Assembly (NCBI GenBank): GCA_034003625.1
Contig: JAVEYG010000015.1
Span: 22,726 to 86,725, forward strand
Direction: 5' to 3'
DNA from: Prolixibacteraceae bacterium
Lineage (GTDB): Bacteria > Bacteroidota > Bacteroidia > Bacteroidales > Prolixibacteraceae
DNA: 64,000 bases
Below are positions 17,174-60,192 of this stretch, in pieces. A model generated the notes under the pieces. That model was not told the origin of the DNA, did no database searches, and was given only the letters and a program-made list of their open reading frames with translations. The stretch's first letter is position 1, and every line of letters begins with the position of its first letter. The position numbers and the translations under genes were made by a program.

Positions 17174-17199
17174 TTGGACGACGCTAATTATTAACGCGA

Positions 17200-19992: not shown

Positions 19993-20011
19993 ATTTTTTA
20001 AACTAAATTGT

Positions 20012-20194
20012 ATGTTTATTCTAATAGCTTATGTCTTTCTTGCATTTGTAGTGGGATTTCTGGGAAGAAGAACTTACCTGGGGTTTTGGGCAAACTTCAT
20101 ATTTGCGCTTTTTTTTACCCCGATTCTTCCGCTGATTTACATTCTGATTGCAAACTACAAAAATAAAAAGGAAGGAACTACCCTTTATAAATAG
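20012..20194 (+). CDS. Small two-TM membrane protein
   Basis: 60-aa hydrophobic ORF that is last in the plus-strand operon. It overlaps the convergent PPTase 3' end by 17 nt. Confidence 0.3.
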   Translation: MFILIAYVFLAFVVGFLGRRTYLGFWANFIFALFFTPILPLIYILIANYKNKKEGTTLYK

Positions 20195-20828
20195 GTTTGA
20201 TTTCAATCAGTTCAACAGTTTCCTGTTTAAGCCCGGAGGCGATGCAACAGGAAATCGAAGGATCGAAACTGAGATGTTGGGAAAACCACCGTTTCCCGTT
20301 AATGATGACTTGTCCGTCTTTTACTTTTACATGGTTTGAAGAAAGCAACGGAAGCCCCCTTCCATCAGCTTTTACAGCGCTTTCCAAAAGCGTCCAATGC
20401 GAATAAAAAGTTTCGGTCGGTTCAACAGAAGTTTCAATTTCTGTCCACACTTCTTCCGGGAAAACGGTTTTAAAATCAGCAAGATCAACAGTTTTTATTT
20501 TTTCAATATCGATACCCACCCGGCAGTTGGTTGAAAAAGCTACCGCCGCACAATAATCTGTATGTGAAATACTGAAGTCGAACGGAGAACCAGGGAAAAA
20601 TGGTTTTCCTGCCTGAGTATATTGAAGGTTTTTAAGCCGATAATCCGGATATCCGTTTTTCGCCAGGGCTTCTTTCAACAAATACGAAGCGGTCAGCAGC
20701 AGCAACCGATCTTCTTCTTTTTTGAAGCCGGCCAGTCGCGATTTCACTTGTTCTGAAAGCGGTTTTACCAGCTCGTTCAATTCGGCCTCTGCAACATACT
20801 CCGTATATGCGTAATAAACTTTAATCAT
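20178..20828 (-). CDS. Sfp-type 4'-phosphopantetheinyl transferase
   Basis: GKPFF..FDFSISHTDYCAAVAFS..VGIDIEKI..WTLLESAVKADG, covering PPTase motifs 1-3. Confidence 0.85.
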   Translation of the reverse strand: MIKVYYAYTEYVAEAELNELVKPLSEQVKSRLAGFKKEEDRLLLLTASYLLKEALAKNGYPDYRLKNLQYTQAGKPFFPGSPFDFSISHTDYCAAVAFSTNCRVGIDIEKIKTVDLADFKTVFPEEVWTEIETSVEPTETFYSHWTLLESAVKADGRGLPLLSSNHVKVKDGQVIINGKRWFSQHLSFDPSISCCIASGLKQETVELIEIKPIYKG

Positions 20829-21519
20829 GTTTTACAAAAGAAAGGCATCTTTCCCGAATCAGCTTACAAATTTCCGGAGTTCGTTCGTAAATGAAAAAAT
20901 GGCCACCTTCGAACCAAAATACTTCTGTTTCTTTTATGGTTTCTTCCTGCCAGCGGCCGGCGTCATCAGCGCTGACTTTTTCCTGTCGTCCAAGCAAAAC
21001 CACAACAGGTACTTCCAGCGGAGGTTCATACCGGTACCGGTAGTTGGCAATCGCCTGAAAATCGGCTTTCACAATCGGAAGGTAGAAATCGAGAAACTCT
21101 TTTTCAGCCAGCAGTTCCTCGGGTGTGCCTTCCATCTCCCGCAATATTTCAATAAACTGATCATCCGGTAAAAGATACCGGTTGTCAGGTTTAACCGAAG
21201 AAGGGGCTGTTTGTCCGGAAACAAAAAGGAGGGAGGGCAACGGTTTTCCCAAACTCCGGATTTCCCTGGTGAGCGTAAAAGCCAGCAAAGCGCCCAGGCT
21301 GTGCCCGAAAAGTGCATATTCACCATTTAATTCCGGTTCGATCTGCCGGAATAAGTCTTCAGTCATTTCGTCAATCGAATAAAGCAGCGGCTCGGTAATC
21401 CTTGTTCCATGGCCCGGCAGTTCCAAATTGAAAAACCGGATGTTGCCGGGCAGTTGTTTTTGGAAGGCTGAATAGGAATAGGCGTTGCCGCCGGAAAAAG
21501 GAATGCAAAACAGGTTCAT
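20821..21519 (-). CDS. Type II (editing) thioesterase
   Basis: 232 aa with LFCIPFSGGNAYSY, GHSLGALLAF (GxSxG) and a C-terminal GGHFF. It overlaps the PPTase start by 8 nt. Confidence 0.85.
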   Translation of the reverse strand: MNLFCIPFSGGNAYSYSAFQKQLPGNIRFFNLELPGHGTRITEPLLYSIDEMTEDLFRQIEPELNGEYALFGHSLGALLAFTLTREIRSLGKPLPSLLFVSGQTAPSSVKPDNRYLLPDDQFIEILREMEGTPEELLAEKEFLDFYLPIVKADFQAIANYRYRYEPPLEVPVVVLLGRQEKVSADDAGRWQEETIKETEVFWFEGGHFFIYERTPEICKLIRERCLSFVKHD

Positions 21520-21598
21520 ATAATGTTTTTAAATTAGTCGATATATAATTTACAATAACTGCTCACTGATAACTGCCACTGGGCACTGCGACTTTTTA

Positions 21599-24500
21599 TT
21601 ATTTCATCAAACGCCTGATGATCCGGTTCGTCAGCCTAGCGTTTTTCTCTATGTTTGGCTGTTTCAGCATGTCCATGTGGCCGCCAAAACCTTCGAAGGT
21701 TTCGTAGGTCGGGCACAGCTCACTCCACGCGCTCCGGCTGATTTTTCGCCCAAAATCAGTGATCTCGTCGTCGGCTTCAATCTGAACAACCGGACAGTTC
21801 AAAAAGCCGGTTTCTGCCCGGGCATTCAGATAACGCCGGTAAGCGACTATTTTTTGCAGCGCCGCATCCTTGATCTCCTCATCCAAAAATTCGGCATGAT
21901 TCTGCTCGATGTACAGCACCGCGTCGTTGAGGTATTCGTTCTCGCTCCATTCAATCACTTCCAGTTGCCGGTAGCTGTCCAGCAGCACGATACCGCCGAC
22001 CGGCTTTCCTCTTTGCTGAAGTTCGAGCGCCACATCGAATGCCATGTTGCCGCCGGCCGAATGCCCAAACAAATAAAAAGCGCCGTCTTTTTGCATGTCG
22101 ATCAGAATGTCGGCCATCGATTTTGCAGGCGTTGCCGACTCGATAAAATTCAATCCGCAAATGGCAAACCGGTCAAAATATTTCGCATATTCCATGTAAG
22201 CGAATGAATAACCAATCCCCGGAGGCATAAAAAAGATTTTCTTTTTCTGTTTCGGGTTGAATAAAATGTAATCAGTCTCCAGATTTTTCAGTCGTTCGTC
22301 TGTTTCCCGGATGACATGGGCCATTTGCCTGATGGTAGGTTGTTCGAAAACCAGGTTCAGGTACGTTTTTTTACCCAGCCGCTTCTGGACTTTCGACATC
22401 AGTTGGATAGCCTTGATGGAATTCCCGCCAGTCTCAAAGAAATTGTCTGTGGCGCCGATCTTTCCCCTTCCAAGAATTTCCTGCCACACTTCGGCAATCG
22501 CTTTTTCTGTCTCGCCTTCGGGTTCCGCATAGTCAAAATGGCCGGCATGGTCCTGTGATCCCGGCTCGGGCAGAGAGCGCAGATCGGCTTTGCCGCTCGG
22601 CGTGCGCGGGAACTGTTCGAGTTTCACAAAATAAGCCGGAATCATGTAAGCGGGAAGCTGGCCTGCTAAATAATTTTTCAGGATAGCAGAGTCCGCCTCG
22701 CCTGAAGTTGTAAAATAAGCAGCAATCTCCTTGTTCTCATCTTCGCCAACCAGTTTTACGGCTGCTTCCTTTATATCAGGATGTTTTTGCAGGCATGATT
22801 CGATTTCGCCCAATTCAATCCGGAAGCCGCGTACTTTCACTTGTCCGTCGTCCCGGCCCAAAAACTCCAGTTCGCCGTTAAAGTTCCATCGTGCCAAATC
22901 GCCGCTTTTATACAACTTCCCATTACCGAACGGGTTGTCAATGAAACGTTCCCGCGTCAAATCCGGTTTGTTCAGATAGCCGTTGGCTACGTTGAAACCT
23001 CCAATGTACAAGTCGCCGGGCAAACCCACCGGGACAGGTTCCATTTTTGCGTCAAGCAGGAAAATTTGGGTATTGTTGATCGGACGGCCGGCGGGAATTT
23101 TCACCGGCTGATTTTTATCTTTTCCGGAGAAAATAAAAGAAGTCACCACGTGGGTTTCCGAAGGGCCGTACTGATTATGGAACCGGAGATGAGGGAACTT
23201 TTTTAATAAACGGACCAGATTTTCATTCATAAAGGGCTGTTCCCCCGAAGTGATCAAATGTTTGAGCGACCGCAGCTGACCCGGGTTTTCCAACCCGCTC
23301 AAAAACACGTTGAGCGCGCTGTAAGGCATGGTCAGGATTTCAATCGATTCCCGTTCGATTATCTCTGCAATCAGGCTCATCTTGTACCGCGTTTCATTTT
23401 CGATCAGGTACAAGGCGCCTGCAGTCGCCATTGAAAACAACATTTCCTGCACCGACACGTCAAAACTATGTGGTGCAAACTGAAGCGTTTTCAATTGTCC
23501 TTCAATAGTTTCCGATTGCCATTCAACCAGATTCAGCAAACATTGGTGCGTGCCCAAAACACCTTTGGGCATTCCCGTCGATCCGGAAGTGTAAATAACA
23601 TAGGCGTTGGCGTTTGGCGCAACAGAAATATCGATATTTGGATCCTCCGAAGCATACTGTCCGAGCATCTCCTCCAACGTTTCTGTTTCAAGAAGCCGTT
23701 CAGGAGAAAACGGAATCGTGCCTTTTAGTTTTTTTGAAGTGATAAGCAGTTTGCACCGGCTGTCTTTTAAAATATATTCAATACGGTTTTGCGGATAATT
23801 TGGATCGACCGGAACATAAACGGCTCCTGCTTTCAGGATCGCCAGCAGCGAAATTACCGACCATTCCGAACGATCTGACAACACGCCGATAAAATCTTCG
23901 GGACAGATGCCCCTTTCGATCATCATGTGGGCCAGCCGGTTGGCCTTTGCATTCAACTCTGCATAATTCAGTTTCCTGCGTTTAAACACGATGGCGGTAC
24001 GATCTGCATTTTGAGCAGCTTGCTTCTCAATCAGCGATACGACGGAGCGGTTTAGCAATTTCCGTTCAATGCCTTTCGACAGGTCCATCAAAGCTGTCTT
24101 TTCTTCGGAAGAGGCGATAGTCAGTTGAGATATTGGTTTTTCCTCGTTGCTCAGGATACCTTCAACCAAAACGGCAAAATGATCGAACATCCGGCGAATC
24201 CGTTCCAGCCGGTACAACGAAGTATTGTACTCGAAGAAATATTTCAGGCAATTTCCGTCGTCATAATAACTAATGGAAAGATCGAACTTACTAAGCGGAT
24301 AATCGTATTCTGCAGGTTCCATTTGCAGGCCGGAGCTTACTTTTACGCTTTCACCAGCCGGCGTTTGGGCGATGAGCATCACATCGAACAGCGGCGAGCG
24401 CGAGAGGTCCCGGTTGAGCTGTAAATCATCCACCAGCATATCGAACGGATACAACTGGTGACTGAACGCTGCAAGCACATTTTCCCGCACTTTCTTCAGA

Positions 24501-27500
24501 AACGATTTAAAACTTTCCTGCTGGTCACATTTATTACGTAAGGCAAGTGTGTTGAGGAAAAAACCGATCTGGTCCTGAATGTCCGGGTGATCGCGGTTGG
24601 CGACCGGCGTTCCAATTACCAAATCGTTTTGTTTGGCATATTTCGAAAAAAGAACATGAAACAACGCCAGCGACGTGATAAACATCGTGGAATGATTGCC
24701 GGCGCTCAACTTTCGGAGCCCTTCAGACAATGAAGCCGGAAGAGCAAACGCTTCAGTCTTTCCTTCGAATGTCTTCACTTTCGGGCGCGGGAAATCGGCC
24801 GGCAAATCCAGCACCGGAACCGGGTCGTTAAATTGTCCGAGCCAATAGTTTTTGTGTTCAACCGCTTGTTCAATCTGTACGTTTTGCCAATGCGCAAATT
24901 CTTTGTATTGAACGGCAGCCGGCGCAAAAATACGTTCATCTTTGGCGATTTTTATTCCGGCAAAATGATCGTAAAATATACCCAGGCGTTTTGCCAGAAT
25001 ATCGATCGACCATTCATCCAGAATAATGTGATGCACGTTGATAACCAGCAAATACTCCGTCCCGTTTTGGTTTTTGATCAAATCCACCCTCATTAGCGGC
25101 GCTTGCGACAGGTCAAAAGGTCGGGTGATAGCATTTTGAATGATGCCGTCCGATTCTTCGGCAAAGTCCTTTTTGCCAGTTATTTCTGAAATTGTGATGG
25201 CAAAACCGGTTTCATCCAAAATCACTTGTTTGGGCTCTCCGTCAATTTCAATAAAGCACGTACGGAGCGATTCATATTTCCTGATCAACGCCTTGAAAGC
25301 TTTTTCCAGGGCTTCCACTTTGATCCCGGATTTCACCGAAAAAACTACCGGGATGTTGTATGCGACCGGATTTTTCTCCACCCGGTTGAAAGTCCACATC
25401 CGACGCTGCGCATGTGAAACATCGTAATATGCTGCACGCGGAAGCGGAGAAAGCGATTGCCGGCTGCCGCTTTCGGCGTTTTTCATAAAAGTTGCAAAAC
25501 GGGCAACCGAAGGATGTTCAAATATCACGGTCAGTGCAAAATCCTGCTTCATCTCCCGGTTGATCTGCGAAATAAGCCGGAGCGCTTTCAGGCTGTGCCC
25601 GCCCAAATCGAAGAAGCTGTCGTATTTGCTGAGCCTTTCCAGGCCAAGCGTCTGTTTCCAGATGGCTGCCAGTTTTTCTTCGGTGGCATCCAGAATTTCG
25701 ATTTCGGCTTCCGCCATCGATCCACCAGTTGTTTCCGGGCCGGGCAGCGCCTTTACATCCACTTTGCCGTTGGGTGTCAGCGGTATGCTGTCTATCTGCA
25801 CAAAATATTGGGGAACCATGTAAGCAGGCATGATTTTTCCCAGGTATTCTTTTAAGTCGTTAACGTCGGTTTCGGGCGCTGTAACCAAGTAGGCTGCAAT
25901 ATTACGGGTTTCGTCTTTTTCTGAAGCGATCACCACTGCATTCTCAACGCCCGGATATCGCCGGATATTGGTTTCAATTTCTCCCAGTTCAATCCGGAAT
26001 CCCCTGATCTTCACCTGCCGATCGATACGCCCCAGGTATTCGAGGTCGCCGGTTTCCGTCCAGCGGCCGAGGTCGCCGGTCCGGTATAATTTTCCCTTTC
26101 CGAACGGGCTTGGCACAAATTTTTCGTTCGTTAACTCTTCTTTGAACAAATAGCCTTTGGCCAACCCGTCGCCTGTGATACAAATTTCGCCCGAATGACC
26201 TGGAGGAACCAGCTTCAGTTTCGGGTCGGTAATATAGACCTGCGTATTCGAAACAGGCTTTCCAATCAGCACTTTTTTATTTTTATTGCTGAAGCGGTAA
26301 ACGGTAGAATAGGTCGTGTCTTCGGAAGGGCCGTACAAATTACGGACTTCAATCCGGTCGCAGTCAATCGCTTCAACCAGCGCCAGTGGAATCTGTTCAC
26401 CTGCCAGGTTGATCGCCGTCAAATGGCTGAAATCATCCGGATTTAGGTCGTCTTTGATGGCAGCCAGCAATGAAGGCACAGTATTGATCAGTACCTTCTC
26501 ATCGTTGGCCAGCCAGTCCGGGATTTCAAGCGCCGATTTCAGCACCCGGATCGTTTTACCGGCAACCAACGAATAAAATATTTCAAATACCGAGAGGTCG
26601 AAACAATACGAAGTGGCGGCATAAACAAGTTCAAAAGGCGTTGTTTTAAACTCAATTCTGCACCATTGCAAAAAGACCGAAAGGTTTTTGTGGGTAATCA
26701 CCACGCCTTTGGGCTGACCGGTACTTCCCGATGTGTAAATAACGTATGCCGGGTCATCCGGGGTGTTGATCACGGATGGATGCTGAGCAGAGAATTTTTG
26801 CAACGCCGGATCATGGATATCCACAATCCGGAATTCCGTCCCTGTTGTTTTGGGCTGAAGTTCTTTTGTCGTAATCAGCGCTTTGGCGCGGCTGTCATTC
26901 AGGATGTAATCAATTCGTTGCTGCGGGTAAGCCGGGTCGATGCCTACATAAGCCGCACCGCTTTTCAGGACGCCCAGCATGGCCACGATCATCGACTCGT
27001 CGCGATCGAGTATAATGCCGATCCGGTCGCCAAATTTTGCAGAACAGGTTTTCCGGAGGAAGTTTGCCAGCCGGTTGGATTTTTCGTCCAGTTCTGCGTA
27101 ACTCATGCTCTTTCCTTTGTACAAAAGCGCTGTTTTTTCCCGGCTTGCCGTGAATGAATTCTGCAACAAATCAAAAACAGAAACGCCTTTGTTAACCTCC
27201 TCATATTGTTGGTTGAAAGTATGGAACAGCTTTTTTTCCGCAGGTAGCAGGAAATCGAGATCACCTATGCGGGCCGAGCGGTTGTTTTTCGTAATAAATT
27301 CAGCCGTTTTAATAAAATGCCCTGCAAAACGTTCGATGCTTTCTTTTTTGAAAAGTGACTTTTTGTATTTAACGGTAATGAAAATTTTGTCCTGCGCTTC
27401 CAAACCGTAAAGCATCAGGTCGTATTCCGACGACAAGATAGTTTCGGCTTTGTAGTCCGAAAGTTGCAGGTCGCCGCCCCGAACTTCCGACAGTTCAAAA

Positions 27501-39400: not shown

Positions 39401-42400
39401 CTTCAAACTGTAATTCAGAAAGTAATTTAAGTTCTTCATCGGAGGCGGGAGCAATGGCCTGTGTTTCTTCTGTTGTTTCTTCCGCATCCACAGTGTCCAT
39501 GTTTTTTTTCACGGCTTCCGCCAAATCGGCCAGCACCGGGTGGTAAAAAATTTCCTTCAGCGGCAGATTCACATTTAGTTCTTTCTGAAGCCGCGAAATG
39601 AGCCGGACTGCGTTCAGGCTGTTGCCGCCGATCCCGAAGAAATTATCGTCCATGCTAATCTGCTCTTTTTGCAGGATTCCGTTGCAAATCCTTACGAGTA
39701 TGGCTTCGATTTCATCACCGGGAGCGCGGAAAGTCTCCTTTTTTAGCAAAGTCGAGGGATCAGGCAAGGCTTTTTTATCGATCTTGCCGTTGGACGAAAG
39801 CGGTATTTTTTCAAGTTGAATAAAACAAGACGGCACCATGTAATCGGGCAAAAACCGCCCCAGATGGTTTTTTAGCGCCGAAGTATCCACAGGCTTTTCG
39901 GCTGTAAACCATGCTGCCAGTTCCGTAGCGCCGTTTTCGCCAAAAAGGGCAACCGCACATTCGCCAACGCCTTCCATCCCGCTAAGGTGTTTTTCGATTT
40001 CCGGCAATTCAACCCGGTAGCCGCGGATTTTGACCTGTTCATCCATTCTTCCCAAAAATTCGATGTTGCCGTCAGGCCGAATTCGCCCGGCATCGCCGGT
40101 TTTGTATATTCGTGTTCCCGTGAGCGGGAATTGGATAAATTTCTCTGCCGATTTTTCCGGATCGTTCAGGTAAGCCCGCGCGAGGCCATTCCCGCCGATA
40201 CAAATTTCTCCCGGCACTCCCACCGGGCACACATTCAAATGCCGGTCGAGCACATAAATTTGCTGGTTCGGTGCCGGTTTGCCGATGGGCGCAATGTCCA
40301 CGTTTTCATTCATATCATCCGGATTAAAACGGAAAAATGACGACTCTACACAACATTCCGTCGGCCCGTAGAAATTGGTAACCCGTACCCCCCTGTTTGC
40401 TGAATTTTGATAAAAGTTGCGCACCAGTTTGTACGGTAAAGCTTCGGAACCCAGGAACAATTCTTTCAACCAGGGTTTCGCGGTTTCGCCAAAACCTTCT
40501 TCCAGCATCACTGCAAAAACAGACGGGGTGATATCGGCGATGTTGATTTTTTCATTCAGGATATAGTTTGAAATTTCCCGTGGATCAAGCCTTTTTTCAT
40601 TACTCAGGATATGCAGGATATTTCCGTTGCAGAGCGTAGCAAAAATTTGCTTCAGGGAGACATCGAATGCGAACGAACTGATCATTAATTCATTCAGAGG
40701 TTCCGGATACCGGGAATAAATATTGTAGTTCAGTGAGCCGATCAGGTTGCTCAATGCGCCATGTTCAACCATCACACCTTTAGGCGTTCCGGTAGATCCC
40801 GATGTGTAAATGACGTATGCAAGATTCCCGGCATTAATTTCCGGTTTTGTAAAAGATGAACTTTTTCCGGCAGTGCGGATGTCCAAAATGTTTGTTCCCG
40901 TCTCCGACAGATGGATTGTCCCGTCAGCCAGAACGGCTTTGGCGCGGCTGTCCCGGACAATAAATGCAGCCCTTTCCGGTGGCGTGTCTGTTGCCAGCGG
41001 CAGACAGGCGGCGCCTGATTTCATTATTCCAACAACCGCAGCAACCGACTGCACCGGATCATCCGTCATCACAACAATGATGTCTTCCCGTCCTGCATTC
41101 ACTTCTTCAATCAAAAGACCGGCAATGTTATCCGCCTGCAGGTTCAAATTACCATAACTCACTTTCCGGTCTTCATAAATCAATGCCGTTGCATCGGGAT
41201 GAACAGCGGCCTGTTCCTCAAATAATCCGGTGACATTTTTTCCCCGGGGCAGTTTTAACGCTGTTTTATTAAACTGAACCAGCAGTTGTTCTTTTTCTTT
41301 CTCCGGGAGAATGGAAAGAGCGCTAATCTTTTCCTCCGGCCCCGACAAGATACTTTCAATCAGTTGCCGGAAATGCTGCGCCATTCGTTCGATACGATTC
41401 TGCCTGAACAGGGATGTGTTGTATTCGATACTGAAAATGATTTCGCCTTTGCTTTCTTCGAACAGGAAAGTCAGGTCGAACATGCTCCGTGTGATGGGAA
41501 ATTCGATTCCTTTGGCGCTGACGCCACTGAATTCAAAATCCATTTCCATCCCGTTTTTGACCATCCAGGCCACCATCACGTCGAAAAGCGGGTTGCGGTT
41601 TTGCAGCCGCTCCACGTCCAGTTCGTCCACCAGCCGGTCAAACGGATACAATTGGTTGTCCAGTGCTTCATTCATGGTCTCGCTCACCTGCTGCAAAAAT
41701 TCCGGAAATGAATTTTCAGGCTGAACCTGGTTGCGAAGAACCAGCGTGTTGATGAAAAATCCGATTTGATTTTCCAGGTCATCATGCTGACGGCCGGCCA
41801 CCGGCGATCCGATAAGTATGTCTTCTTCTCCGGTATATTTGTAGAACAAAACATAAACGGCAGACAGCAAAGTCACAAACAGGCTGGCGTCCCGGCTGCG
41901 GCCCAGTTCGGCCAGCGCCCTTGTTTTTTCCAATCCCAACCGGAAATGAAGCAGGTTACCATCCAGTGGCAAATTTTCCGGACGTTTGTAATCGGTCGGC
42001 AGGTTGAGCAGCGGACGGGGTTTCTGCAGTTTGTTCAACCAGTAATCTTTAACGGATACAAGTGAACTTTCTTCCAGCATTTTATTTTGCCAGATCGCAT
42101 AATCTTTGTAGTGAATCCGCAACGGTCCAAGTGCAACTTCGGAATGGTTAAGATAAGCGTCGTATAAAATTTTCAGTTCTTTCAACATGTTGTCCAGCGA
42201 CCAGCCATCGCCGATAATATGGTGCATGTTGAACAGGAAAAGGTGTCGATCGGCTGAAAGACGGACGAGCCTGATCGCCATCAGCGGGAGTTTCGACAGG
42301 TCGAATTCTTTGTCAAACCAGGCAACGGCCAGTTCATTCAGGGTTTCCTTATTCCAATCACCACCGGCGTATTCCGCCGTTTCAATTTTAAAATCGAAAC

Positions 42401-45400
42401 GGGTTACTATTTTTTGAAAAGGCTCTCCGTCAATTTCGATAAAACAGGTTCTCAGCGATTCATGGCGCCGGACGATAGCGTTCCAGGCCTTTTCAAACAC
42501 AGCGACATCCAGATTCCCTTTCAAAAGCAAGGCGCCGGGCAGGTTGTACATGGCGCTTTGCCCCTCCAGTTTCGACAACATCCACATCCTGCGCTGGGCA
42601 TGGGAAAGCGGATAATAATCATTTTCTTCCGCCTTTTCAATCGGGTTGAAAAGAGAAGGATTTTTGGTTTTCAACAGTTTAGCGAGTGAAGCAACGGTTG
42701 CATGCCTGAACACTTCCCAAATAGTGACTTCGATATTAAACTCACGGTGAATCCTGGAAACCAGCCGAATGGCAATGAGGCTGTGCCCACCCAGTTTGAA
42801 AAAATTGTCGTTGGTATCAAGCTGTTCAACAGCCAGTAATTCTTTCCATATTTCACACAACTTTATTTCGAGTGCGTCGTCAATCCTGGAAATACCGCCG
42901 GCTTCCGGTGTTTTTTTCTGAGGAACCGGCAATGCTTTTTTATCTACTTTCCCATTGGCCGAAAGGGGAAGTTTTTCGAGTTCGGTGAACCAGGCCGGGA
43001 TCATATAATCAGGCAGATGCAGCGACAAAAATTGTCTCAGTTCGTCCGGATCGGTTTTAGACGAAACGGTGTAACAGGCCGCAAGTTCCTGATGGCTTCC
43101 TTCGCCGGTCAGGATAGCTGCAGCAGAATTTATCGTCGGATAATTCCGTATGCAGCTTTCAATTTCATTCAATTCGATCCTGAACCCGCGCAGTTTAACC
43201 TGGTCGTCAGCCCTTCCGGTGAGCAGGATGGCGCCGTCGTCCAGATAGCGGCCGATGTCGCCGGTGCGGTAAATCCGTTTTCCGGGAAGAAAATCCGTTT
43301 CGACGAATTTTTCGCGGGTCATTTCCGGCTGGTTCAGATAGCCTCTTGCCAGTCCTTCGCCGGCAATGCACAATTCGCCGTTCACTCCGGCAGGCGCCAT
43401 TTTCAAATTTTTATCCAGAATGAAAACCTGCACGTTGCCCAGCGGTTTTCCGACGGGAACGGCTTCAAAGCCGGATTGGTTTTGCAACGCAAATTCAGAA
43501 GTGATATTCAGAGAAGCGGATACGTCGCAGCATTCGGTGGGACCATATACGTTGCTGATCACGGGCGGCTGCTTGCCGGCCTGTTCAAACAATTTTTGTA
43601 CCGGACGCCACATGAGTTGCTGCCCGCCGATGACAAACCGCTGCGGCAAATAGTTCGGAACACCGGTCTGCAGTTCATCGAGCAGGATTTCCAAATGAAT
43701 TGGCGTGCCGTCGGAAACATCAATCCGGTGTGTTTTATAATATTCCAGCAGTTTTTTTCCGTTCAACCGGATATCATCGGGAACAATATCGAGGCAGTGG
43801 CCGGTTAACAGCGCATAAAAAATCTGTTTAACCGAGGCATCGAAAACAAACGGCGAAACCAAAGCTATATTTAAAGGCGCCGGAGGATTCCGATAAATTG
43901 CTGCATCGAGTCCGGCTACCAGGTTGCAGAGGCTGTGGTGCTCAACCATGACGCCTTTGGGCATTCCGGTTGACCCGGAAGTATATAAAACATAAGCCAG
44001 AGAAGACGCAGAAATGCTGACTGCGGGTAATCGACCCTCACTTTCATTTAATTTACCGGTATCGAGAACAGTAATACTTTCGCCGGCAATTTGCCGTGCC
44101 AACTTCATCAGGCTGTGGTCGGTCAGCAGCATTTTGCACCGGCTGTCTTTCAGCATAAAACGGAGGCGTTCCACAGGCAATTCGGGGCTGAGTGGCAAAT
44201 AAGCCCCGCCGGCTTTCAGGATACCGAAAATACCGATCACCATTTGTTCCGAACGCGGCAAAAGTAGAGCGACAATATCATCCGGTTCAATTCGATGCTT
44301 CAGGATCTCATGGGCAACAGCATTTGTTTTCCGGTCAAACTGGCTGTAAGTGAGCCTGGTGTTATTGAAAACCAGTGCAGTTTGTGATGGTGTTTTTCTG
44401 ACCTGTTTTTCAAACACTTCAGTTACAATCCTGTTGTCGATGCTGAGTTCGGGGCCGCACGCCATATGCCTCAGTGCCAGCTCTTCCGTGTGCTCCAGGA
44501 TGTTGATGTCCCGGATCGGAAGCCGGGGATTTTTTAGAACGGTATTCAGCAAGATATTCATGTGCCCGGTGAGCTTTTCGATCCGTTGCTGGTTAAATAA
44601 GTTGGTGTTGAAGCCAATGCAAAAATTTATTTTTTCGTCGTTTTCCGTGAATGTGAAAGTCAGGTCAAATTTGCTGATCGTAAAATCCACCGGATAAAAT
44701 GAAGCTTTGATTTCGTTCAGTCCCAAAGCAGTAACATCTTTGGTTTGATATTGCAGAAGTACATCGAAAAGGGGGGCGCGCGATGTATCACGTTCCAGGT
44801 CCAAATCCTGAACCAGTCGGTCGAACGGATAATTGCTGTTGGAGAAAGCCCCGGACGCGTTTACCTTCACTTCCTGCAAAAATTGCAGGAAAGTCTGTTC
44901 TGTTTTTATTTGATTTCGCAAAGCGACGGTGTTGAGGTACAAACCCACCTGGTTTTCCAGTTCGCGGCGGTTTCTTCCGGCCACGGGGGAGCCGATGAAA
45001 ATGTCTTCATCGGAAGTGTATTTATGAAGCAATACATTCACCGCCGCCAGCAGAATCATAAACGGGCTGACTTGTTGCTCTTTGCCGAAATTTTTCAGCC
45101 GGTGCCCGAGGGATTGATCCAGTTCGCTAAAAAGATATTTGCCCTCGTAAGTTTTTACAGCCGGGCGCATCCGGTCGGTTGGCAATTGCAGCGCGGGCAG
45201 GGGAGTTTTCAGGGTTTTCAGCCAAAATTCTTTTTCTTTCCTGAGCTTGCCGCTATCGAGTAGTTTTTTTTCATAATGGCAATAATCCTTGTACTGAAAA
45301 TGAAGAGGTTTCAGAATATCTTTTTGGATTTCAACAGAAAAAGAGTTATAAACCTTTGACAGTTCCTCCATGAGAATTCCGATGGAAAGCCCGTCGCCGA

Positions 45401-48400
45401 CAATGTGGTGGATGACAAGCAAAAAAAGATGTTTTTGAGGATTGATCCTTGCCAGATGCGCACGAAATGGGGTTTCATGACGGAGATCAAAAGGAGTCAT
45501 CACGGCTTTGTCGAATACTTTTTTAGCTTTAAATTCCCCATCGGTTCCTTTACTGAAATCGTAAAAATTGAATGGTACCGAAGGGTTGTTCAGCACCTTT
45601 TGAAACGGTTCGCCTTCCCGTTCGATAAAAATGGTGCGCAAAATTTCGTGCCGTTTTACAACGGCATAAATTGCATTTTCAAGTTTTATACGATCCAAAT
45701 TGCCCTCCAGCAAAAACGAAACCGGCATGTTGTAAACCGCCGCGTTTTTTTTGTCCTGTGATAAAACCCACAGGCGTTTCTGGGCATGTGACAACTGGTA
45801 AAATTCCTGCTCCGGCGCTTTTTGAATATCGTCTTCATCGTTGTTTTTGCCGGCCGCCAGTGCCGTTGCCACTCCCCGTACCGTCGGGTGATCAAAAACA
45901 GATTTGAAGTTAATTTCCAGTCCAAGTTCCCTTTTTATCCGTGTGATCAGACGGGCCGTTTTGAGGCTTTCGCCGCCCAGTTCAAAAAAGTTATCGTTTA
46001 CCTTCACCGGCGAATGGTTCAGCACATCTTCAAAAAGCGGGATTAATTTCAATTCCAGTGCAGTTGGTTCCGCTGCATCATCGACAACAGTCGCCCTTTT
46101 AAATGAAACCTGTTTCCGAAGTTCATTTTTATTGACTTTTCCATTTGGAGTGAGCGGAACTTTTTCAATAAAAACAAAATACTGCGGTACCATGTACTCT
46201 GGCAAAAATTCCAGCAAAAACTCTCTAAGCGCTGTTGTCGCCACTTCGCCGGAAGGAACGACAAATGCTGCAAGTTCTTTGCTGCCGCTCGTGTCTACAT
46301 CGAGAACCACAGTTTCTTTCACCAACTTGTGTTTGTGCAGGCGGTTTTCAATCTCTCCCAACTCGATGCGGTTTCCTTTGATTTTTACCTGGTCGTCGAG
46401 CCTGCCCAGAAATTCGATGTGGCCGTCGGGCAAAAAACGCGCTTTGTCGCCTGTCCGGTACATGTGCCGGTTTTTTTCAAAAGGGTCGGGGATAAATTTT
46501 TGAGCGGTCAGCGTTTCGTTGTTTAAATAGCCGCGGGCGAGACCGGGGCCGGAAATGAACAGTTCGCCTGCAAAACCGGCAGGCAACGGTTCGAGCTGTT
46601 CATTCAAAATATAAATGGAAGAACCCGGAACAGCTTTGCCGATGGGCAAAGTACCGGCATTTTCTGATTCCCTGCCAGCCTGAAACCATGAAGCACAAAC
46701 CGATGCTTCCGTAGGGCCGTAACCGTTGATATAGTTTTTTCTTTTTTTATAGAAGTCCACATCCGATGGAATGGCCGCTTCTCCGGCGGTAATCAATGTG
46801 TGCAGGTGCGGCAGTTCCGGTTTGTCGAGTGCATTCAGATAGGCCGGCGGCAGTGTGGCTACGCTGACCTTTTTATCATTCATATATTGAATGAATGTAG
46901 GTGGGTCCTGGATGGTTTCCCGGTCGGCGATAACCAGTGTTGCGCCTGTCAGCAGCGCCTGAAATATTTCGAAAACCGAAGCGTCAAAACCGGGAGAGGC
47001 AAACTGGAGCACGCGGTCGTCTTCGGTCACATGGTAGTTTTCGATCATATTTACAAACATGTGCATAAAACTACCATGTTCAATCATGACGCCTTTGGGC
47101 GCGCCCGTTGAGCCCGAAGTGTAAATGATATACGCCAGGTCGTTTTGTTTTATTTCTGCAGGAATATCGATATCACCCGAATCTTCCGTTTCATCCAGCG
47201 TGAATATATTTACCGGGAGCCCGGTATGTGCCGGATTGTCTGTTGCCAGCAATTTAGCGCGGCTGTTTTCGAGGATGAAGCTGAGCCTTTCGCGCGGCAA
47301 CCGGCCGTCAACCGGGAGATAAACAGCACCGGTTTTCATGATGCCGAGCATGGCGGCAATGGCGCGAGGCGTACGCTCGGCCGCCAGGCAAACGATATCC
47401 CCTTTTTTTACCTGATGCCGTTTGGCCAGATTGCCGGCAATCCGGTCCGATTCCCTGTTAAGAGCGGAATAGTTGATTGACTTTTCATGGTAAACGACGG
47501 CAGCTTTCTCCGGGAATAATTTCGCGCATGATTCGAACCGGGAAACAATGGTATCCTTTGTTTTTTTTACTTCGCCGGTTTGATTGAATACCTTCACTAT
47601 TTTGTGTTCTTCAAAAGGCGTCAGAAATTTTACTTCTGAAATTTTCTTTTCCGGGAAGTATATCAACTCAAAAAGAACCGTTTCAAAGCATCTGGCGAAT
47701 TGCATCATTTCCTGTTCAGAAAAAACAAGCGGGTTGTAATTGAAAAACAGGTTGACATTTTCCTCCTCGTCGTATTCATCGATTTCCAGGCTGATGCTTT
47801 CGGTACGGATTTGAGTATCCAGAGTCACAGATTGGAGTTTGGCTTCACCGAAGCGTTGTGAAAAATCCACTTTCCGGTAAATGACAGTTACATCGAAAAG
47901 CTCGTTCCGGAATCCGGGGTTGCCACGGAAATGTTTAAACGTTTCACTCAGCGGGAGTCGTTGATGTCGGTAACTTTCTTTTACCTCCAGTTTAATGGCA
48001 TTCAGGATATTGGCGAACGTCCAGTCTTGTTGCAGGCGAAGGCGGACCGGAATCATGTTCATAAACAGGCCGGGGGTATTGCGAAATTTATGATTGCTCC
48101 GGTTCAGCACCGGCATGCCGATGATGATGTCGCTTTTGCCGTAAATTTTATAGAACGTGGTGAATAAAATGCCCAAAAGCGTTTGAAAGGAAGAGACCCC
48201 TATTTCACCGGCAATCTTCAAAATGGATGCGTAACACATCCGGTGCAGGTTCAGGGTGATGCGTTCGGTGTGGAGCGATGCAGTTTTTAAACTGTATTTT
48301 TTTGAAGTAAAATCCATGGGTTCGGGCAGCGGGCTGAGTTTTTTCTGCCAAAACAAAGTGGAATCTTTGTAATACTCAGACTCCCGGTATTTCAGGTCGT

Positions 48401-48950
48401 CTTCCAGAAAATCCAGGTACGAACAGCCTTTGATTTCCGGGTAACCGCCTGTGGCCAATAAACTGTTGTAAGTATCTGAAAGGGCCTGATTGACAATGGA
48501 ACGGCCGTAAGCATCGTTTGAAAAATGATGAAATCTCGGAAACAGGATAAATTGTTTTTCAGCCGTTTGAAAGACCATTTCACGATACAACCGTACTTTT
48601 TCGAAAGGAAATGGTTTGGAATTTTCCTGAAGTAAAAATTGCATGGCGCTTTCGAAAGGATTCTTCTCCTGTCTGAGGTCAACGTATTCAATAATATCGG
48701 TTTCTGTTTCTGAATCAAAAGTCTGGAAAAGTTCGCCGTCTTTCGAAACAAATCTTTGCCGGAACACATCAAATTTACCTGTAATAAATTGGTAGGCTCG
48801 TCCGAGCAGTTCTACGTCCAGCGCCCCGTTCAGGATCAGGACGCCTCCCATGTTGTATTTGCTGTCGTTTCGATGAAGAAGATAGTCGTAGTAGAAAGTC
48901 CGCTGAGGCAAAGTCAGCGGGTATAAATGGTCGTCGTTACTATTTTGCAT
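39387..48950 (-). CDS. Three-module NRPS: Cstarter-A-T, C-A-T, C-A-T
   Basis: 3187 aa. The N-terminal C domain has HHFSNDAYG (48525-48530), with no preceding A or T. Further HHxxxDG motifs are at 45405 (HHIVGDGLS) and 42219 (HHIIGDGWS). A3 motifs are LAYIIYTSGSTGAPKG, LAYVLYTSGSTGMPKG and LAYVIYTSGSTGTPKG. T sites are FFELGGES, FFKLGGHS and FFGIGGNS. It ends in an acidic tail, LQFEDEDE. Confidence 0.95.
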   Translation of the reverse strand: MQNSNDDHLYPLTLPQRTFYYDYLLHRNDSKYNMGGVLILNGALDVELLGRAYQFITGKFDVFRQRFVSKDGELFQTFDSETETDIIEYVDLRQEKNPFESAMQFLLQENSKPFPFEKVRLYREMVFQTAEKQFILFPRFHHFSNDAYGRSIVNQALSDTYNSLLATGGYPEIKGCSYLDFLEDDLKYRESEYYKDSTLFWQKKLSPLPEPMDFTSKKYSLKTASLHTERITLNLHRMCYASILKIAGEIGVSSFQTLLGILFTTFYKIYGKSDIIIGMPVLNRSNHKFRNTPGLFMNMIPVRLRLQQDWTFANILNAIKLEVKESYRHQRLPLSETFKHFRGNPGFRNELFDVTVIYRKVDFSQRFGEAKLQSVTLDTQIRTESISLEIDEYDEEENVNLFFNYNPLVFSEQEMMQFARCFETVLFELIYFPEKKISEVKFLTPFEEHKIVKVFNQTGEVKKTKDTIVSRFESCAKLFPEKAAVVYHEKSINYSALNRESDRIAGNLAKRHQVKKGDIVCLAAERTPRAIAAMLGIMKTGAVYLPVDGRLPRERLSFILENSRAKLLATDNPAHTGLPVNIFTLDETEDSGDIDIPAEIKQNDLAYIIYTSGSTGAPKGVMIEHGSFMHMFVNMIENYHVTEDDRVLQFASPGFDASVFEIFQALLTGATLVIADRETIQDPPTFIQYMNDKKVSVATLPPAYLNALDKPELPHLHTLITAGEAAIPSDVDFYKKRKNYINGYGPTEASVCASWFQAGRESENAGTLPIGKAVPGSSIYILNEQLEPLPAGFAGELFISGPGLARGYLNNETLTAQKFIPDPFEKNRHMYRTGDKARFLPDGHIEFLGRLDDQVKIKGNRIELGEIENRLHKHKLVKETVVLDVDTSGSKELAAFVVPSGEVATTALREFLLEFLPEYMVPQYFVFIEKVPLTPNGKVNKNELRKQVSFKRATVVDDAAEPTALELKLIPLFEDVLNHSPVKVNDNFFELGGESLKTARLITRIKRELGLEINFKSVFDHPTVRGVATALAAGKNNDEDDIQKAPEQEFYQLSHAQKRLWVLSQDKKNAAVYNMPVSFLLEGNLDRIKLENAIYAVVKRHEILRTIFIEREGEPFQKVLNNPSVPFNFYDFSKGTDGEFKAKKVFDKAVMTPFDLRHETPFRAHLARINPQKHLFLLVIHHIVGDGLSIGILMEELSKVYNSFSVEIQKDILKPLHFQYKDYCHYEKKLLDSGKLRKEKEFWLKTLKTPLPALQLPTDRMRPAVKTYEGKYLFSELDQSLGHRLKNFGKEQQVSPFMILLAAVNVLLHKYTSDEDIFIGSPVAGRNRRELENQVGLYLNTVALRNQIKTEQTFLQFLQEVKVNASGAFSNSNYPFDRLVQDLDLERDTSRAPLFDVLLQYQTKDVTALGLNEIKASFYPVDFTISKFDLTFTFTENDEKINFCIGFNTNLFNQQRIEKLTGHMNILLNTVLKNPRLPIRDINILEHTEELALRHMACGPELSIDNRIVTEVFEKQVRKTPSQTALVFNNTRLTYSQFDRKTNAVAHEILKHRIEPDDIVALLLPRSEQMVIGIFGILKAGGAYLPLSPELPVERLRFMLKDSRCKMLLTDHSLMKLARQIAGESITVLDTGKLNESEGRLPAVSISASSLAYVLYTSGSTGMPKGVMVEHHSLCNLVAGLDAAIYRNPPAPLNIALVSPFVFDASVKQIFYALLTGHCLDIVPDDIRLNGKKLLEYYKTHRIDVSDGTPIHLEILLDELQTGVPNYLPQRFVIGGQQLMWRPVQKLFEQAGKQPPVISNVYGPTECCDVSASLNITSEFALQNQSGFEAVPVGKPLGNVQVFILDKNLKMAPAGVNGELCIAGEGLARGYLNQPEMTREKFVETDFLPGKRIYRTGDIGRYLDDGAILLTGRADDQVKLRGFRIELNEIESCIRNYPTINSAAAILTGEGSHQELAACYTVSSKTDPDELRQFLSLHLPDYMIPAWFTELEKLPLSANGKVDKKALPVPQKKTPEAGGISRIDDALEIKLCEIWKELLAVEQLDTNDNFFKLGGHSLIAIRLVSRIHREFNIEVTIWEVFRHATVASLAKLLKTKNPSLFNPIEKAEENDYYPLSHAQRRMWMLSKLEGQSAMYNLPGALLLKGNLDVAVFEKAWNAIVRRHESLRTCFIEIDGEPFQKIVTRFDFKIETAEYAGGDWNKETLNELAVAWFDKEFDLSKLPLMAIRLVRLSADRHLFLFNMHHIIGDGWSLDNMLKELKILYDAYLNHSEVALGPLRIHYKDYAIWQNKMLEESSLVSVKDYWLNKLQKPRPLLNLPTDYKRPENLPLDGNLLHFRLGLEKTRALAELGRSRDASLFVTLLSAVYVLFYKYTGEEDILIGSPVAGRQHDDLENQIGFFINTLVLRNQVQPENSFPEFLQQVSETMNEALDNQLYPFDRLVDELDVERLQNRNPLFDVMVAWMVKNGMEMDFEFSGVSAKGIEFPITRSMFDLTFLFEESKGEIIFSIEYNTSLFRQNRIERMAQHFRQLIESILSGPEEKISALSILPEKEKEQLLVQFNKTALKLPRGKNVTGLFEEQAAVHPDATALIYEDRKVSYGNLNLQADNIAGLLIEEVNAGREDIIVVMTDDPVQSVAAVVGIMKSGAACLPLATDTPPERAAFIVRDSRAKAVLADGTIHLSETGTNILDIRTAGKSSSFTKPEINAGNLAYVIYTSGSTGTPKGVMVEHGALSNLIGSLNYNIYSRYPEPLNELMISSFAFDVSLKQIFATLCNGNILHILSNEKRLDPREISNYILNEKINIADITPSVFAVMLEEGFGETAKPWLKELFLGSEALPYKLVRNFYQNSANRGVRVTNFYGPTECCVESSFFRFNPDDMNENVDIAPIGKPAPNQQIYVLDRHLNVCPVGVPGEICIGGNGLARAYLNDPEKSAEKFIQFPLTGTRIYKTGDAGRIRPDGNIEFLGRMDEQVKIRGYRVELPEIEKHLSGMEGVGECAVALFGENGATELAAWFTAEKPVDTSALKNHLGRFLPDYMVPSCFIQLEKIPLSSNGKIDKKALPDPSTLLKKETFRAPGDEIEAILVRICNGILQKEQISMDDNFFGIGGNSLNAVRLISRLQKELNVNLPLKEIFYHPVLADLAEAVKKNMDTVDAEETTEETQAIAPASDEELKLLSELQFEDEDE

Positions 48951-48978
48951 TGACTTAATGTTAAAAGCTTTTTGGATT

Positions 48979-49794
48979 TTACAGACTTATTTCAATCCCA
49001 ATATTTTGCGTGCTGTTATCGGGGATCAATCCAAGCAGTTTCAATTCCTTATCGTATCTATAATTGTATCCGGCAACCAAATTCACATGTTTCCAGAGGG
49101 CTACGGATAAATTCAGAAGATAGCCGTACCGGTACCTGTCCAGGTCGTTGATGTCCGTAAAATAATACACTTTGCCGGAGATGGATGCTTCGGGTGTAAT
49201 GGCGTACACAAAATCATGCACACTATAAAAAGCAGCATAAGGCTCTTTTATAACGTTCAGATTATCAACAGGGATAGTGTATTCCTGATTGATCCGGCCG
49301 GAAGCAACCAGCGATTTTAGCTTAAGTCTTTTTAACAGTGAGGTATTTAGTCCAATTCCCCCGTAAAAAGTATAGCGGTTTTGAAGCAACAGAGCATCGT
49401 CCCTTTCCCAGATAAGACCCCCTTCAACAAAAACGAATTTTGAGACATCGACATTGACATAATCTGTAAAGAACTGTGATTTTGTTGCATAGCTCAAATC
49501 GACGTAACTTTTCAGGTTCATGTTAAAATTATCGATGCCGTACCTGGAAAAATTGGTGCATACGCCTTTCCGAAGTACCAGTTCCAGGTTTCCGATACTC
49601 GTGTTGCCGCTAATGACGCCTTTCATCCGACTATAGCTGTACCTCGCACCGGCATGAACCTGCGGTTTGGTTACAGAATCAGCCAGGGAACTTTGTAACC
49701 ACCATTTTTCGGATGGCTGCGCGACTAAAAATAAAGAGTTTATGCCGATAAAAAAAAGCATAAAAAGAACCATCCGATAAAAATATTTTATCAT
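48979..49794 (-). CDS. Putative outer-membrane beta-barrel protein, first gene of the NRPS operon
   Basis: 271 aa with a signal-like N-terminus (VLFMLFFIGINSLFLVAQP), alternating beta-strand pattern and aromatic-rich strands. It lies 28 nt upstream of the NRPS start. Confidence 0.5.
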   Translation of the reverse strand: MIKYFYRMVLFMLFFIGINSLFLVAQPSEKWWLQSSLADSVTKPQVHAGARYSYSRMKGVISGNTSIGNLELVLRKGVCTNFSRYGIDNFNMNLKSYVDLSYATKSQFFTDYVNVDVSKFVFVEGGLIWERDDALLLQNRYTFYGGIGLNTSLLKRLKLKSLVASGRINQEYTIPVDNLNVIKEPYAAFYSVHDFVYAITPEASISGKVYYFTDINDLDRYRYGYLLNLSVALWKHVNLVAGYNYRYDKELKLLGLIPDNSTQNIGIEISL

Positions 49795-49953: not shown

Positions 49954-50463
49954 TCAGACAGTTTTCTTTGCTTTGTTATTTTCCATTTCTTTGGCGACAG
50001 CTTTACCTTCTTCGAACAGATCCTTGAAGTATTCTTTGACTTTTACCGGATCGAAATCAAGGAAAGTTCCGCCAGATTCAAAATGCTGGATGAAAGATTT
50101 TCCGATTGCGTAAGTTGCCGCGCCGGAAAATAAAGACATCGACACGCCGCCTAAAATTGTTCCTACAAGGGGGATCATTTTCAGTACGCTGCCCACACCA
50201 CCGCCAGCCAGTGAGTTGGGCACGATCGATCCCAAAAGGGCGCTGATAATGGCTTTTCCCCTGTTTTCACTAAACTTAACTTCGTAAAGTTTTGAAAGAT
50301 CGCTCAACATTTTGAGCTGAACGCCGGTCACCGCGGCCAAATCGACAAATGGAACAGGAATTAAGCCTGCGCCCATGGTCCACCACATCCATTTTTTTAC
50401 TAAGTCATTTGCTGAATCGAGTTTTGGCTGAGCGACTTCTTCTGTAACTTCTTTTTTTTCCAT
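49954..50463 (-). CDS. DUF697/YcjF-like small membrane protein
   Basis: 169 aa with WTMGAGLIPVPFVDLAAVTGVQLKMLSDLSKLY and glycine-rich TM segments. An 8-bp-stem hairpin (AGTGCAGG..CCTGCACT, about 49888-49927) lies downstream. Confidence 0.5.
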   Translation of the reverse strand: MEKKEVTEEVAQPKLDSANDLVKKWMWWTMGAGLIPVPFVDLAAVTGVQLKMLSDLSKLYEVKFSENRGKAIISALLGSIVPNSLAGGGVGSVLKMIPLVGTILGGVSMSLFSGAATYAIGKSFIQHFESGGTFLDFDPVKVKEYFKDLFEEGKAVAKEMENNKAKKTV

Positions 50464-53256: not shown

Positions 53257-53318
53257 CTCTTACGGTTTCGCGTTGGGCTAAAATCTAGCTATTCAGGAAA
53301 TTAAATAATTGATTTACA

Positions 53319-60133: not shown

Positions 60134-60141
60134 AATATTTT

Positions 60142-60192
60142 TGCATAAAAATATGCACTTTTTTTCTACTGCGCAAAAAGACTGCGCAGTAG
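60142..60192. promoter_or_regulatory. Divergent promoter/operator region: a TAnnTTTG-like -7 box and two palindromes
   Basis: TATTTTTG at 60136-60143 (plus strand). Palindrome 1 is TGCATA-aaaa-TATGCA at 60142-60157. Palindrome 2 is CTACTGCGCA-n7-TGCGCAGTAG at 60166-60192. Confidence 0.45.

Follow-up and report, generated by a model that had tools for sequence, protein, structure and literature searches.

The DNA analysed here is a 64-kb window of contig JAVEYG010000015.1 from a Prolixibacteraceae bacterium (strands and coordinates follow window numbering throughout), and it carries two giant minus-strand genes that encode a hybrid nonribosomal peptide synthetase (NRPS)/polyketide synthase (PKS) assembly line. 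NRPS gene 1 (39387..48950, minus strand, 3187 aa) carries, by Pfam, Condensation, AMP-binding and PP-binding domains three times each, in the order Cstarter-A1-T1, C2-A2-T2, C3-A3-T3, and ends in an acidic C-terminal tail, SDEELKLLSELQFEDEDE (LQFEDEDE). NRPS/PKS gene 2 (21599..39400, minus strand) encodes 5933 aa counted from the ATG at 39400; its open reading frame (ORF) spans 21599..39487 and encodes 5962 aa if counted from the first ATG. With the start at ATG 39400 (MKTNK...), gene 2 overlaps gene 1 by 14 nt, and relatives start at the same place. The Pfam scan of gene 2, done in seven pieces, gives the order C-A-T, C-A-T, KS (ketosynthase), CurL/RhiE-like linker, DH (dehydratase), KR (ketoreductase), ACP (acyl carrier protein), C-A-T, C-A-T-thioesterase (TE). 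The PKS part is built from KS (PF00109/PF02801), DH (PF21089/PF14765), KR (PF08659) and PP-binding families, and the C-terminal TE belongs to PF00975. Altogether, Pfam finds seven condensation (C), seven adenylation (A) and seven NRPS thiolation (T) domains, the complement of a modular type I NRPS. A first-pass annotation of this DNA had proposed the same domain string, operon structure and order of the two megasynthases, together with the LQFEDEDE tail and the 14-nt overlap, and all of these are confirmed.

The modules can be followed along the minus strand. Module 1 (45831..48950) consists of the N-terminal, starter-position C domain (HHFSNDAYG), A1 and T1 (GGESL), module 2 (42645..45830) of C2-A2-T2, and module 3 (39387..42644) of C3-A3-T3 with the docking-like tail. 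In module 4 (36188..39400) a docking-like head, MKTNKIKELKQRALAGDLSALEELRQTG, precedes C4-A4-T4, and module 5 (33038..36187) is C5-A5-T5. An acyltransferase (AT)-less PKS module comes next (28538..33037), with KS (DTACSS/ETHGT/NIGH), CurL/RhiE-like linker, DH (HRVMGQP, DAALS), KR (GGTGGIG, YTAAN) and ACP (GGDSI). It is followed by module 6 (25388..28537), whose C6 (HHIVIDAFS) would accept from the PKS ACP ahead of A6 and T6, and by module 7 (21599..25387), C7-A7-T7-TE, with the TE motifs GHSAG ... GGHMDM. The HHxxxD motifs lie at residues 141, 1181 and 2243 of gene 1 and at residues 198, 1248, 3781 and 4819 of the gene 2 ORF. Their spacings of 1040, 1062, 1109 (across the gene junction, from the nucleotide distance), 1050, 2533 and 1038 aa reproduce those first reported, which ran from 1038 to 1109 aa, with 2533 aa across the PKS insert.

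All catalytic motifs are intact. This holds for all T/ACP serines, all C-domain HHxxxD motifs and the A-domain core motifs (A3/A4/A5/A7/A10), as well as for the Cys-His-His triad of the KS, the His and Asp motifs of the DH, the NADPH and YxxxN motifs of the KR and GHSAG/GGHMDM in the TE. The first-pass annotation had named missing catalytic residues or frameshifts as signs of a decayed cluster; since both giant ORFs are uninterrupted and every motif is present, a decayed or pseudogenised cluster was rejected. Judged from its sequence, we consider the cluster intact and functional in principle, and it is without a named or characterised homologue in any of the sequence searches. The line has no epimerase (E), methyltransferase (MT) or oxidase (Ox) domain, and the Pfam scan of gene 2 gave none. 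Module lengths are 1038-1062 aa, in keeping with the earlier remark that the spacing leaves no room for such domains. E or dual E/C domains were rejected because there is no extra Pfam domain and no second HH[I/L]xxxxGD motif near the N-terminus of the C domains. An Rfam gathering scan of the window gave no match.

The junction between the two proteins is conserved as well. In relatives, the donor tail reads ...SDEELKLLSxLQF(D/E)D(D/E)E and the acceptor head, basic and helical, reads M..IKELKQRALxGDLxALEELR, and the gene 1/gene 2 overlap is kept too. This supports the idea, first raised for the tail of gene 1 and now extended to the head of the next protein, that the two form a putative docking pair.

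Adenylation codes and condensation domains

The specificity codes were read by aligning the A4-A5 region of every A domain with a fragment of GrsA, which, as an internal check of code extraction, gives the published DAWTIAAIC code. They are DAFTIAGVCK for A1 (aromatic-type), DAKDVGVDVK for A2 and DVKDFGFVEK for A3 (both Glu-like), DAMLLGVTFK for A4 (aliphatic-type), DFWNIGMIHK for A5 (Thr-type), DLFNNALTYK for A6 (Ala-like) and DVQTISQVVK for A7 (Pro-like). The seven partial codes read at first (DA.F, DA.K, DV.K, DA.M, DF.W, DL.F and DV.Q) prove right without exception, and what was drawn from them for Thr-, Pro- and Glu-type domains holds for the full codes. The A5 code agrees at 9/10 positions with DFWNIGMVHK, which is among the Thr-activating codes (PMC12283262), and the Pro-like reading of A7 fits the Val236/Gln239 pair typical of Pro domains; Asp235/Leu236/Asn278 is given for Ala-type domains (PMC12283262). 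In the full-text literature, six window codes were without a match, and among standard codes solely the Thr reference was found.

Across about 10 related loci, these codes are conserved to different degrees. The module 5 code is identical throughout, while those of modules 3 and 7 are off at one position in one locus each (for module 3, 8 loci are identical and one differs). The codes of modules 1 and 2 are each nearly identical from locus to locus, that of module 6 varies slightly, and that of module 4 is free to vary. The building blocks conserved best would be Thr, the C2 unit and the Pro-like residue, that is, the predicted ring-forming ones.

The first condensation domain, C1, begins at residue 8 of gene 1 with no A-T upstream, an arrangement shared with the relatives, and its HHxxxD motif is intact and conserved. 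It is only 21-26% identical to C2-C7, which share 32-42% among themselves. Searched exhaustively, 1.84 billion representative proteins contain just two clusters of the C1 family, and the next-nearest matches beyond it, at about 30-32% identity, were N-terminal C domains of other synthetases. Both the N-terminal position and these N-terminal relatives fit a starter role for C1. Many characterised starter C systems take acyl-CoA or acyl-ACP from primary metabolism. The basis for the "lipo-" part of the product first proposed for this line is the N-terminal position of a very divergent C domain, and no acyl-activating enzyme or carrier protein was found to go with it. Among the other C domains, C2, C4 and C6 have their nearest match in TycC6 (2JGP), an LCL-type C domain. 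Because there are no E domains and these three are closest to TycC6, an all-L peptide is the default prediction.

Related loci, the missing acyltransferase and partner genes

The assembly line belongs to a family of about 15 related loci, all from metagenome-assembled genomes (MAGs) or metagenome sequences, in Bacteroidota and one Ignavibacteriota. A search of genome contigs for the PKS module gave no match with a single-protein query and 5 loci with an alignment-based query; further family loci came from contigs of starter C domain relatives and from 11 metagenome loci. PKS module identity to the window is 64% in a Prolixibacteraceae MAG, 58% in a Melioribacteraceae MAG (Ignavibacteriota), 58% in a Rikenellaceae MAG and about 50% in a Bacteroidales MAG, and the module order is the same across these relatives. 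The rarity first claimed for such lines is reasonable for characterised products (PMC9248904), and we found no characterised Prolixibacteraceae or Bacteroidales NRPS/trans-AT product in the literature; at the same time, the line has its place in this family of uncharacterised loci.

Two observations concern individual relatives. In the locus L001, from a Prolixibacteraceae MAG (3762-9218 / 9185-22954), the frame breaks in the module 5 A domain, between A4 and A5, which is either an assembly frameshift or a real disruption. Two close relatives of the starter C domain, P0121 and P0123, come from short contigs whose NCBI MAG records carry the names 'Methanococcaceae archaeon' and 'Candidatus Paceibacterota bacterium'. 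Mis-binning of these contigs is probable, because the neighbourhood DUF697-AT-DUF481-NRPS (L007) matches that of the Bacteroidales family.

The PKS module contains no AT: the Pfam scan found no PF00698 (Acyl_transf_1) domain, and the KS is followed by PF22621 (CurL-like) and PF22336 (RhiE-like) linkers where an AT would sit. A cis-AT PKS was rejected for want of PF00698 and because merely about 220 aa separate KS from DH. An elongating KS with a linker in place of the AT, as in trans-AT modules, is therefore present, and a cluster-encoded discrete AT is not. The relatives differ on this point. Six of them (L007, L009, L010, L013, L014 and L015) have, in this order, DUF697, a discrete AT of 302-310 aa, DUF481 and the NRPS, and L016/L017 have DUF697, then AT, then NRPS. 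The discrete ATs of three of these eight loci were scanned, and all three match PF00698. No AT occupies that spot in the window, in L008 (the window's closest relative), in L011 or in L012 and L005, which come from the same Rikenellaceae genome and overlap at 100% identity, nor does one occur elsewhere in their available sequence. The PKS catalytic residues are all kept in the AT-less window and in L012+L005, and the PKS motifs are conserved in six family members. The family is a trans-AT system, and some of its members have a gene for a dedicated AT where others lack one.

There are precedents for such a situation. In barnesin biosynthesis, FabD is the trans-AT for the KS-DH-KR-ACP module that makes vinylogous arginine (PMC13096860), and for the thalassospiramides the AT gene is not nearby and heterologous production works without a cognate AT (bioRxiv 10.1101/560987). 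Thus, an AT-less module can be served by an AT of primary metabolism. As for the one inserted ketide unit predicted at the outset, the KS-DH-KR-ACP module is there, while the AT it requires, on whose absence the first-pass annotation was silent, is encoded neither in the module nor in the 64 kb. The presence and absence of the AT gene within one family amount to a natural experiment on whether FabD can replace a pathway-specific trans-AT.

The operon closes as first described, with a type II stand-alone thioesterase gene (20821..21519, minus strand, 232 aa; PF00975, E=1.8e-45), which shares 58% identity with the gene that follows the NRPS in L001, and an Sfp-type 4'-phosphopantetheinyl transferase (PPTase) gene (20178..20828, minus strand, 216 aa; PF01648 (ACPS) and PF22624 (AASDHPPT_N)), which overlaps it by 8 nt. 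The PPTase has weak NCBIfam matches to HetI, AcpT and AusB; no PPTase gene was found in the relatives' loci, nor an exact match in a gene-position collection. At the other end of the operon lies a DUF481 gene (48979..49794, minus strand, 271 aa; PF04338, E=2.8e-8), predicted to encode an outer-membrane beta-barrel with an N-terminal signal-like segment. Its stop lies 28 nt before NRPS gene 1, and in 11 loci (L006-L015, L018) the gene immediately upstream of the NRPS matches it at 41-76% identity. Beyond it, a DUF697 membrane protein gene (49954..50463, minus strand; PF05128, E=2.6e-15) is 65-90% identical to a gene flanking the NRPS, on either side, in 13 loci (L001, L003, L005, L007-L011, L013-L017). 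The 160-nt gap between DUF697 and DUF481 contains solely a terminator-like hairpin and T-run after DUF697 (49926-49887).

Convergent with the NRPS operon, four plus-strand genes form a tight operon. The first encodes a cyclic-peptide export ABC transporter with fused permease and ATPase (15554..17173; TIGR01194, 315.5 bits against a cut-off of 286.2), 68-69% identical to the NRPS-adjacent gene in L002 and L005; L003 and L001 carry it too. Its partner, an SPFH/Band-7 membrane protein (17200..18081; PF01145), is 72% identical to the protein whose gene follows the ABC gene in L002 and 74% identical to its L005 counterpart. The SPFH gene overlaps by 4 nt the gene for an NMT1/SsuA-like binding protein (18078..19061; PF09084), which is 62% identical to the next gene product in L002 and is a probable cluster partner. 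Last comes a gene for a Cache/PDC sensor-domain protein (19048..19992; PF22673 and PF02743), whose membership of the cluster is uncertain, the relatives' loci ending short of this position.

Because the DUF697 and ABC-SPFH(-NMT1) genes are syntenic partners in relatives, the cluster most likely extends over about 15554-50463. This is wider than the 20178-49794 of the first-pass annotation, in which the DUF481 gene had gone undescribed. Beyond DUF697, the relatives carry unrelated genes, such as those for glycoside hydrolases and para-aminobenzoate (PABA) synthesis, which marks the cluster boundary there and leaves no conserved fatty-acid-activating gene.

Proposed product, alternatives and precedents

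We propose that this is a functional cluster for an N-acyl seven-residue peptide with one ketide after Thr and a 12-membered depsipeptide ring, a reading that, taken as a whole, we place slightly on the likely side of even. The PPTase would prime the eight carrier domains, and the N-terminal C domain would N-acylate residue 1, probably with a fatty acyl group from primary metabolism. Modules 1-5 would then build acyl-(aromatic)-(Glu-like)-(Glu-like)-(aliphatic)-Thr, and the KS-DH-KR-ACP module would add one malonyl unit to the Thr thioester, with malonyl loading by an unlinked acyltransferase, most simply the fatty-acid enzyme FabD. Reduction and dehydration by KR and DH would give a vinylogous Thr (4-amino-5-hydroxyhex-2-enoyl), after which the C6 and C7 modules would add an Ala-like and then a Pro-like residue and the TE would release the chain. 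In the preferred mode of release, the Thr-derived hydroxyl would attack the Pro thioester and close a depsipeptide ring with an alpha,beta-unsaturated amide; counted along O, C5, C4, C3, C2, C1, N, Cα, C', N, Cα and C', this ring has 12 atoms. Export would be the task of the ABC exporter together with the SPFH, DUF697 and DUF481 proteins. By analogy, a ring with such a Michael acceptor could serve as a protease-inhibitor warhead.

Several observations weigh against this proposal. No AT was detected elsewhere in the window, either by Pfam on the flanking ORFs or by tblastn with a relative's AT. The KR lacks a clean LDD motif and reads VPGEG instead, a point that bears on the stereochemistry of what reaches the DH. 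Neither in the window nor in relatives is the cluster accompanied by a nearby gene for an acyl-CoA/AMP ligase, a fatty acyl-AMP ligase (FAAL) or a free ACP. Compared with solved structures, C1 (1.8e-25 for RzmA Cs, 2.5e-18 for CDA C1, 7e-13 for SrfAA Cs) is not closer to starter C domains than to TycC6 (2.8e-27). The TE sequence motifs do not discriminate between release modes. Finally, the readings of modules 1-4, 6 and 7 come from setting the codes against reference codes and not from a predictor.

The release step gives rise to the first alternative, in which the same line ends with hydrolysis by the TE, so that the N-acyl peptide is linear and holds the vinylogous Thr internally, or, in a variant, with cyclisation via another nucleophile, for example the side chain of a Tyr or a 3-hydroxy fatty acid. 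Terminal TEs of the PF00975 type hydrolyse or cyclise, the motifs here fit both, and barnesin, which comes from a related KS-DH-KR-ACP-TE ending, is linear (PMC13096860). However, Thr, the C2 unit and the Pro-like residue form the part of the family's line that is kept best and match the thalassospiramide ring-forming arrangement atom for atom, and the exporter is of the cyclic-peptide type (TIGR01194); we regard release in this form as possible, though on the unlikely side. A second alternative concerns the other end of the chain: the donor of the N-terminal C domain might be an aryl group or an acyl group other than a fatty one, or the domain might be inactive, and the product would then not be a lipopeptide. 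The low identity of C1 to C2-C7, its near lack of relatives beyond its own small family, its similar scores against aryl-accepting C domains (VibH, EntF, MxcG) and starter C domains, and the lack of a fatty-acid activating gene nearby all speak for this. Yet characterised N-terminal C domains without an upstream carrier are N-acylating starters, as is established and as barnesin and thalassospiramide exemplify, and the HHxxxD motif of C1 is intact and conserved; we consider such a start improbable.

The absence of an AT from the 64 kb, when 8 relatives encode one beside the NRPS, could also mean that the PKS module stays unloaded and is skipped or stalled, the line then yielding a (lipo)heptapeptide without the C2 unit, truncated shunt products, or no product at all. 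Against this, the AT-less members keep every PKS catalytic residue, and at least four independent AT-less loci (the window, L008, L011 and L012+L005) argue against recent decay. Moreover, modules of this kind are supplied by FabD or by ATs of the host when barnesin and thalassospiramides are made, and skipping would require C6 to accept from T5 across a 1500-aa insert. We consider a skipped or stalled module very unlikely.

Among the closest parallels to the proposed ring-forming line is the thalassospiramide system Ttc/Ttm of Thalassospira and Tistrella (Rhodospirillaceae), likewise a hybrid NRPS/trans-AT PKS lipopeptide line with a starter C domain. Its ending, too, runs from a hydroxy-amino-acid module through a PKS module that lacks an AT but has KR and DH to a pair of NRPS modules and a TE, the likeness being one of domain logic. 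There, too, no AT gene lies near the cluster, and a primary-metabolism AT suffices (bioRxiv 10.1101/560987). Thalassospiramide has an ester-closed 12-membered ring whose alpha,beta-unsaturated amide alkylates calpain Cys115. Its building blocks are Ser-C2-Val-(NMe)Tyr, joined by Ser-T, a trans-AT PKS containing DH, Val and Tyr-TE, and vinylogous Thr-X-X would lead to an equal ring size in the present line. The residues differ, with Thr, Ala-like and Pro-like here in place of Ser, Val and N-Me-Tyr. In contrast to Ttc/Ttm, the line described here has no methyltransferase, tandem T domains, A-less modules or cis-AT module, and it is strictly collinear, with seven complete modules of one A and one T each. 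In Ttc/Ttm the methyltransferase sits in the last module, and pass-back iteration is a further non-linear feature. It also belongs to a different phylum, and DUF697, DUF481, SPFH and ABC exporter genes have not been reported for ttc/ttm.

Barnesin A (brn, Sulfurospirillum barnesii) provides a second parallel, as it is also made by a Cstarter NRPS followed by an AT-less KS-DH-KR-ACP that gives a vinylogous amino acid, with FabD, encoded outside the cluster, as the trans-AT (PMC13096860). The brn cluster likewise has a cyclic-peptide transporter and its own PPTase, and its producer is an anaerobe (PMC13096860). However, barnesin is a lipodipeptide released in linear form from a line that ends with its PKS module (KS-DH-KR-ACP-TE), whereas here the PKS module is internal to a heptapeptide line, with two NRPS modules after it, and would give vinylogous Thr rather than Arg. 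The syrbactins (syringolin, syl; glidobactin, glb) also combine a 12-membered ring and an alpha,beta-unsaturated amide with an NRPS-PKS hybrid origin from an amino acid and one malonyl, and are reported to be covalent proteasome inhibitors (cited in PMC13096860). They differ in being macrolactams closed via a Lys side chain and not esters, in coming from much shorter lines and in their origin from Proteobacteria. Syrbactin PKS modules carry an integrated AT. Bacteroidota cyclic lipopeptides such as the chitinopeptins are made by NRPS-only lines, which are not known to include a PKS module. The chitinopeptins of Chitinophaga share with the proposed product that they are N-acylated nonribosomal peptides of Bacteroidota made by a Cstarter-initiated NRPS (PMC9248904), and producers of this type are aerobic Chitinophagia.

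In the light of these comparisons, it is tempting to speculate, tentatively and with more doubt than belief, on the family as a whole. Its members in Bacteroidota and Ignavibacteriota (Prolixibacteraceae, Rikenellaceae, other Bacteroidales and one Melioribacteraceae MAG) could make thalassospiramide-/syrbactin-like covalent protease or proteasome inhibitors, with an N-acyl tetrapeptide tail on a 12-membered vinylogous-Thr/Ala/Pro depsipeptide ring. Some members of the family would have lost the dedicated trans-AT, with FabD taking over, and export would proceed via a previously unrecognised set of DUF697, DUF481 barrel, SPFH and ABC proteins. Bacteroidia are regarded as poor in secondary metabolism, with an average of about 1.15 biosynthetic gene clusters per genome, and trans-AT PKS clusters and hybrids are called rare in the phylum (PMC9248904). 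Here, an intact family spans two phyla, and its conserved Thr-ketide-X-Pro ending could form an electrophilic ring that inhibits cysteine proteases or the proteasome. This potential makes it a concrete target for heterologous expression. The line does not depart from known assembly-line logic, and the current understanding of such machines is unchanged.

Genomic surroundings

The NRPS/PKS genes (20001-48000) have a GC content of 45-50%, and most of the flanking sequence 36-44%. A Type III-B CRISPR-Cas system lies at the start of the window, with Cmr3 (123..1238), RAMP proteins (1250..2113 and 2507..3427) and Cas6 (6105..7049). It is accompanied by a CRISPR-like array (8691-9365) of at least 10 repeats of about 35 nt, ATTCCTTTATAAGTGAGCCTTCGGGCGACTGAGAC, at a spacing of 68-74 nt. 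Spacer-less tandem repeats occur between the cas genes: a 67-nt unit is present in 11 head-to-tail copies (4398-5133) and in two more (5906-6039), and a 43-nt unit at 4137-4392; the GC fraction of the repeats is about 0.50, against about 0.40 nearby. On the other side of the cluster are two HipA-like kinase genes (55017..56246, plus strand; 56742..57989, minus strand) and a WYL/WCX regulator gene (58547..60214, minus strand). Because of the GC contrast and these neighbouring defence/mobile-type genes, the surroundings suggest a variable genomic region or horizontal acquisition.

An ORF of 994 aa (9857-12841, plus strand) and three consecutive ORFs of 418, 199 and 160 aa (52000-54412, plus strand) have no Pfam match at E<=0.001. 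The RtcB protein encoded at 61939..63120 shows 100% identity to one that NCBI assigns to a Prolixibacteraceae MAG (Bacteroidota, Bacteroidia, Marinilabiliales). A second SPFH/Band-7 gene (60820-61920) lies just upstream of RtcB (61939..63120), a pair that recurs on Logan contig L019; of the two SPFH/Band-7 genes in the window, the one at 17200-18081 is the conserved partner of the biosynthetic gene cluster.

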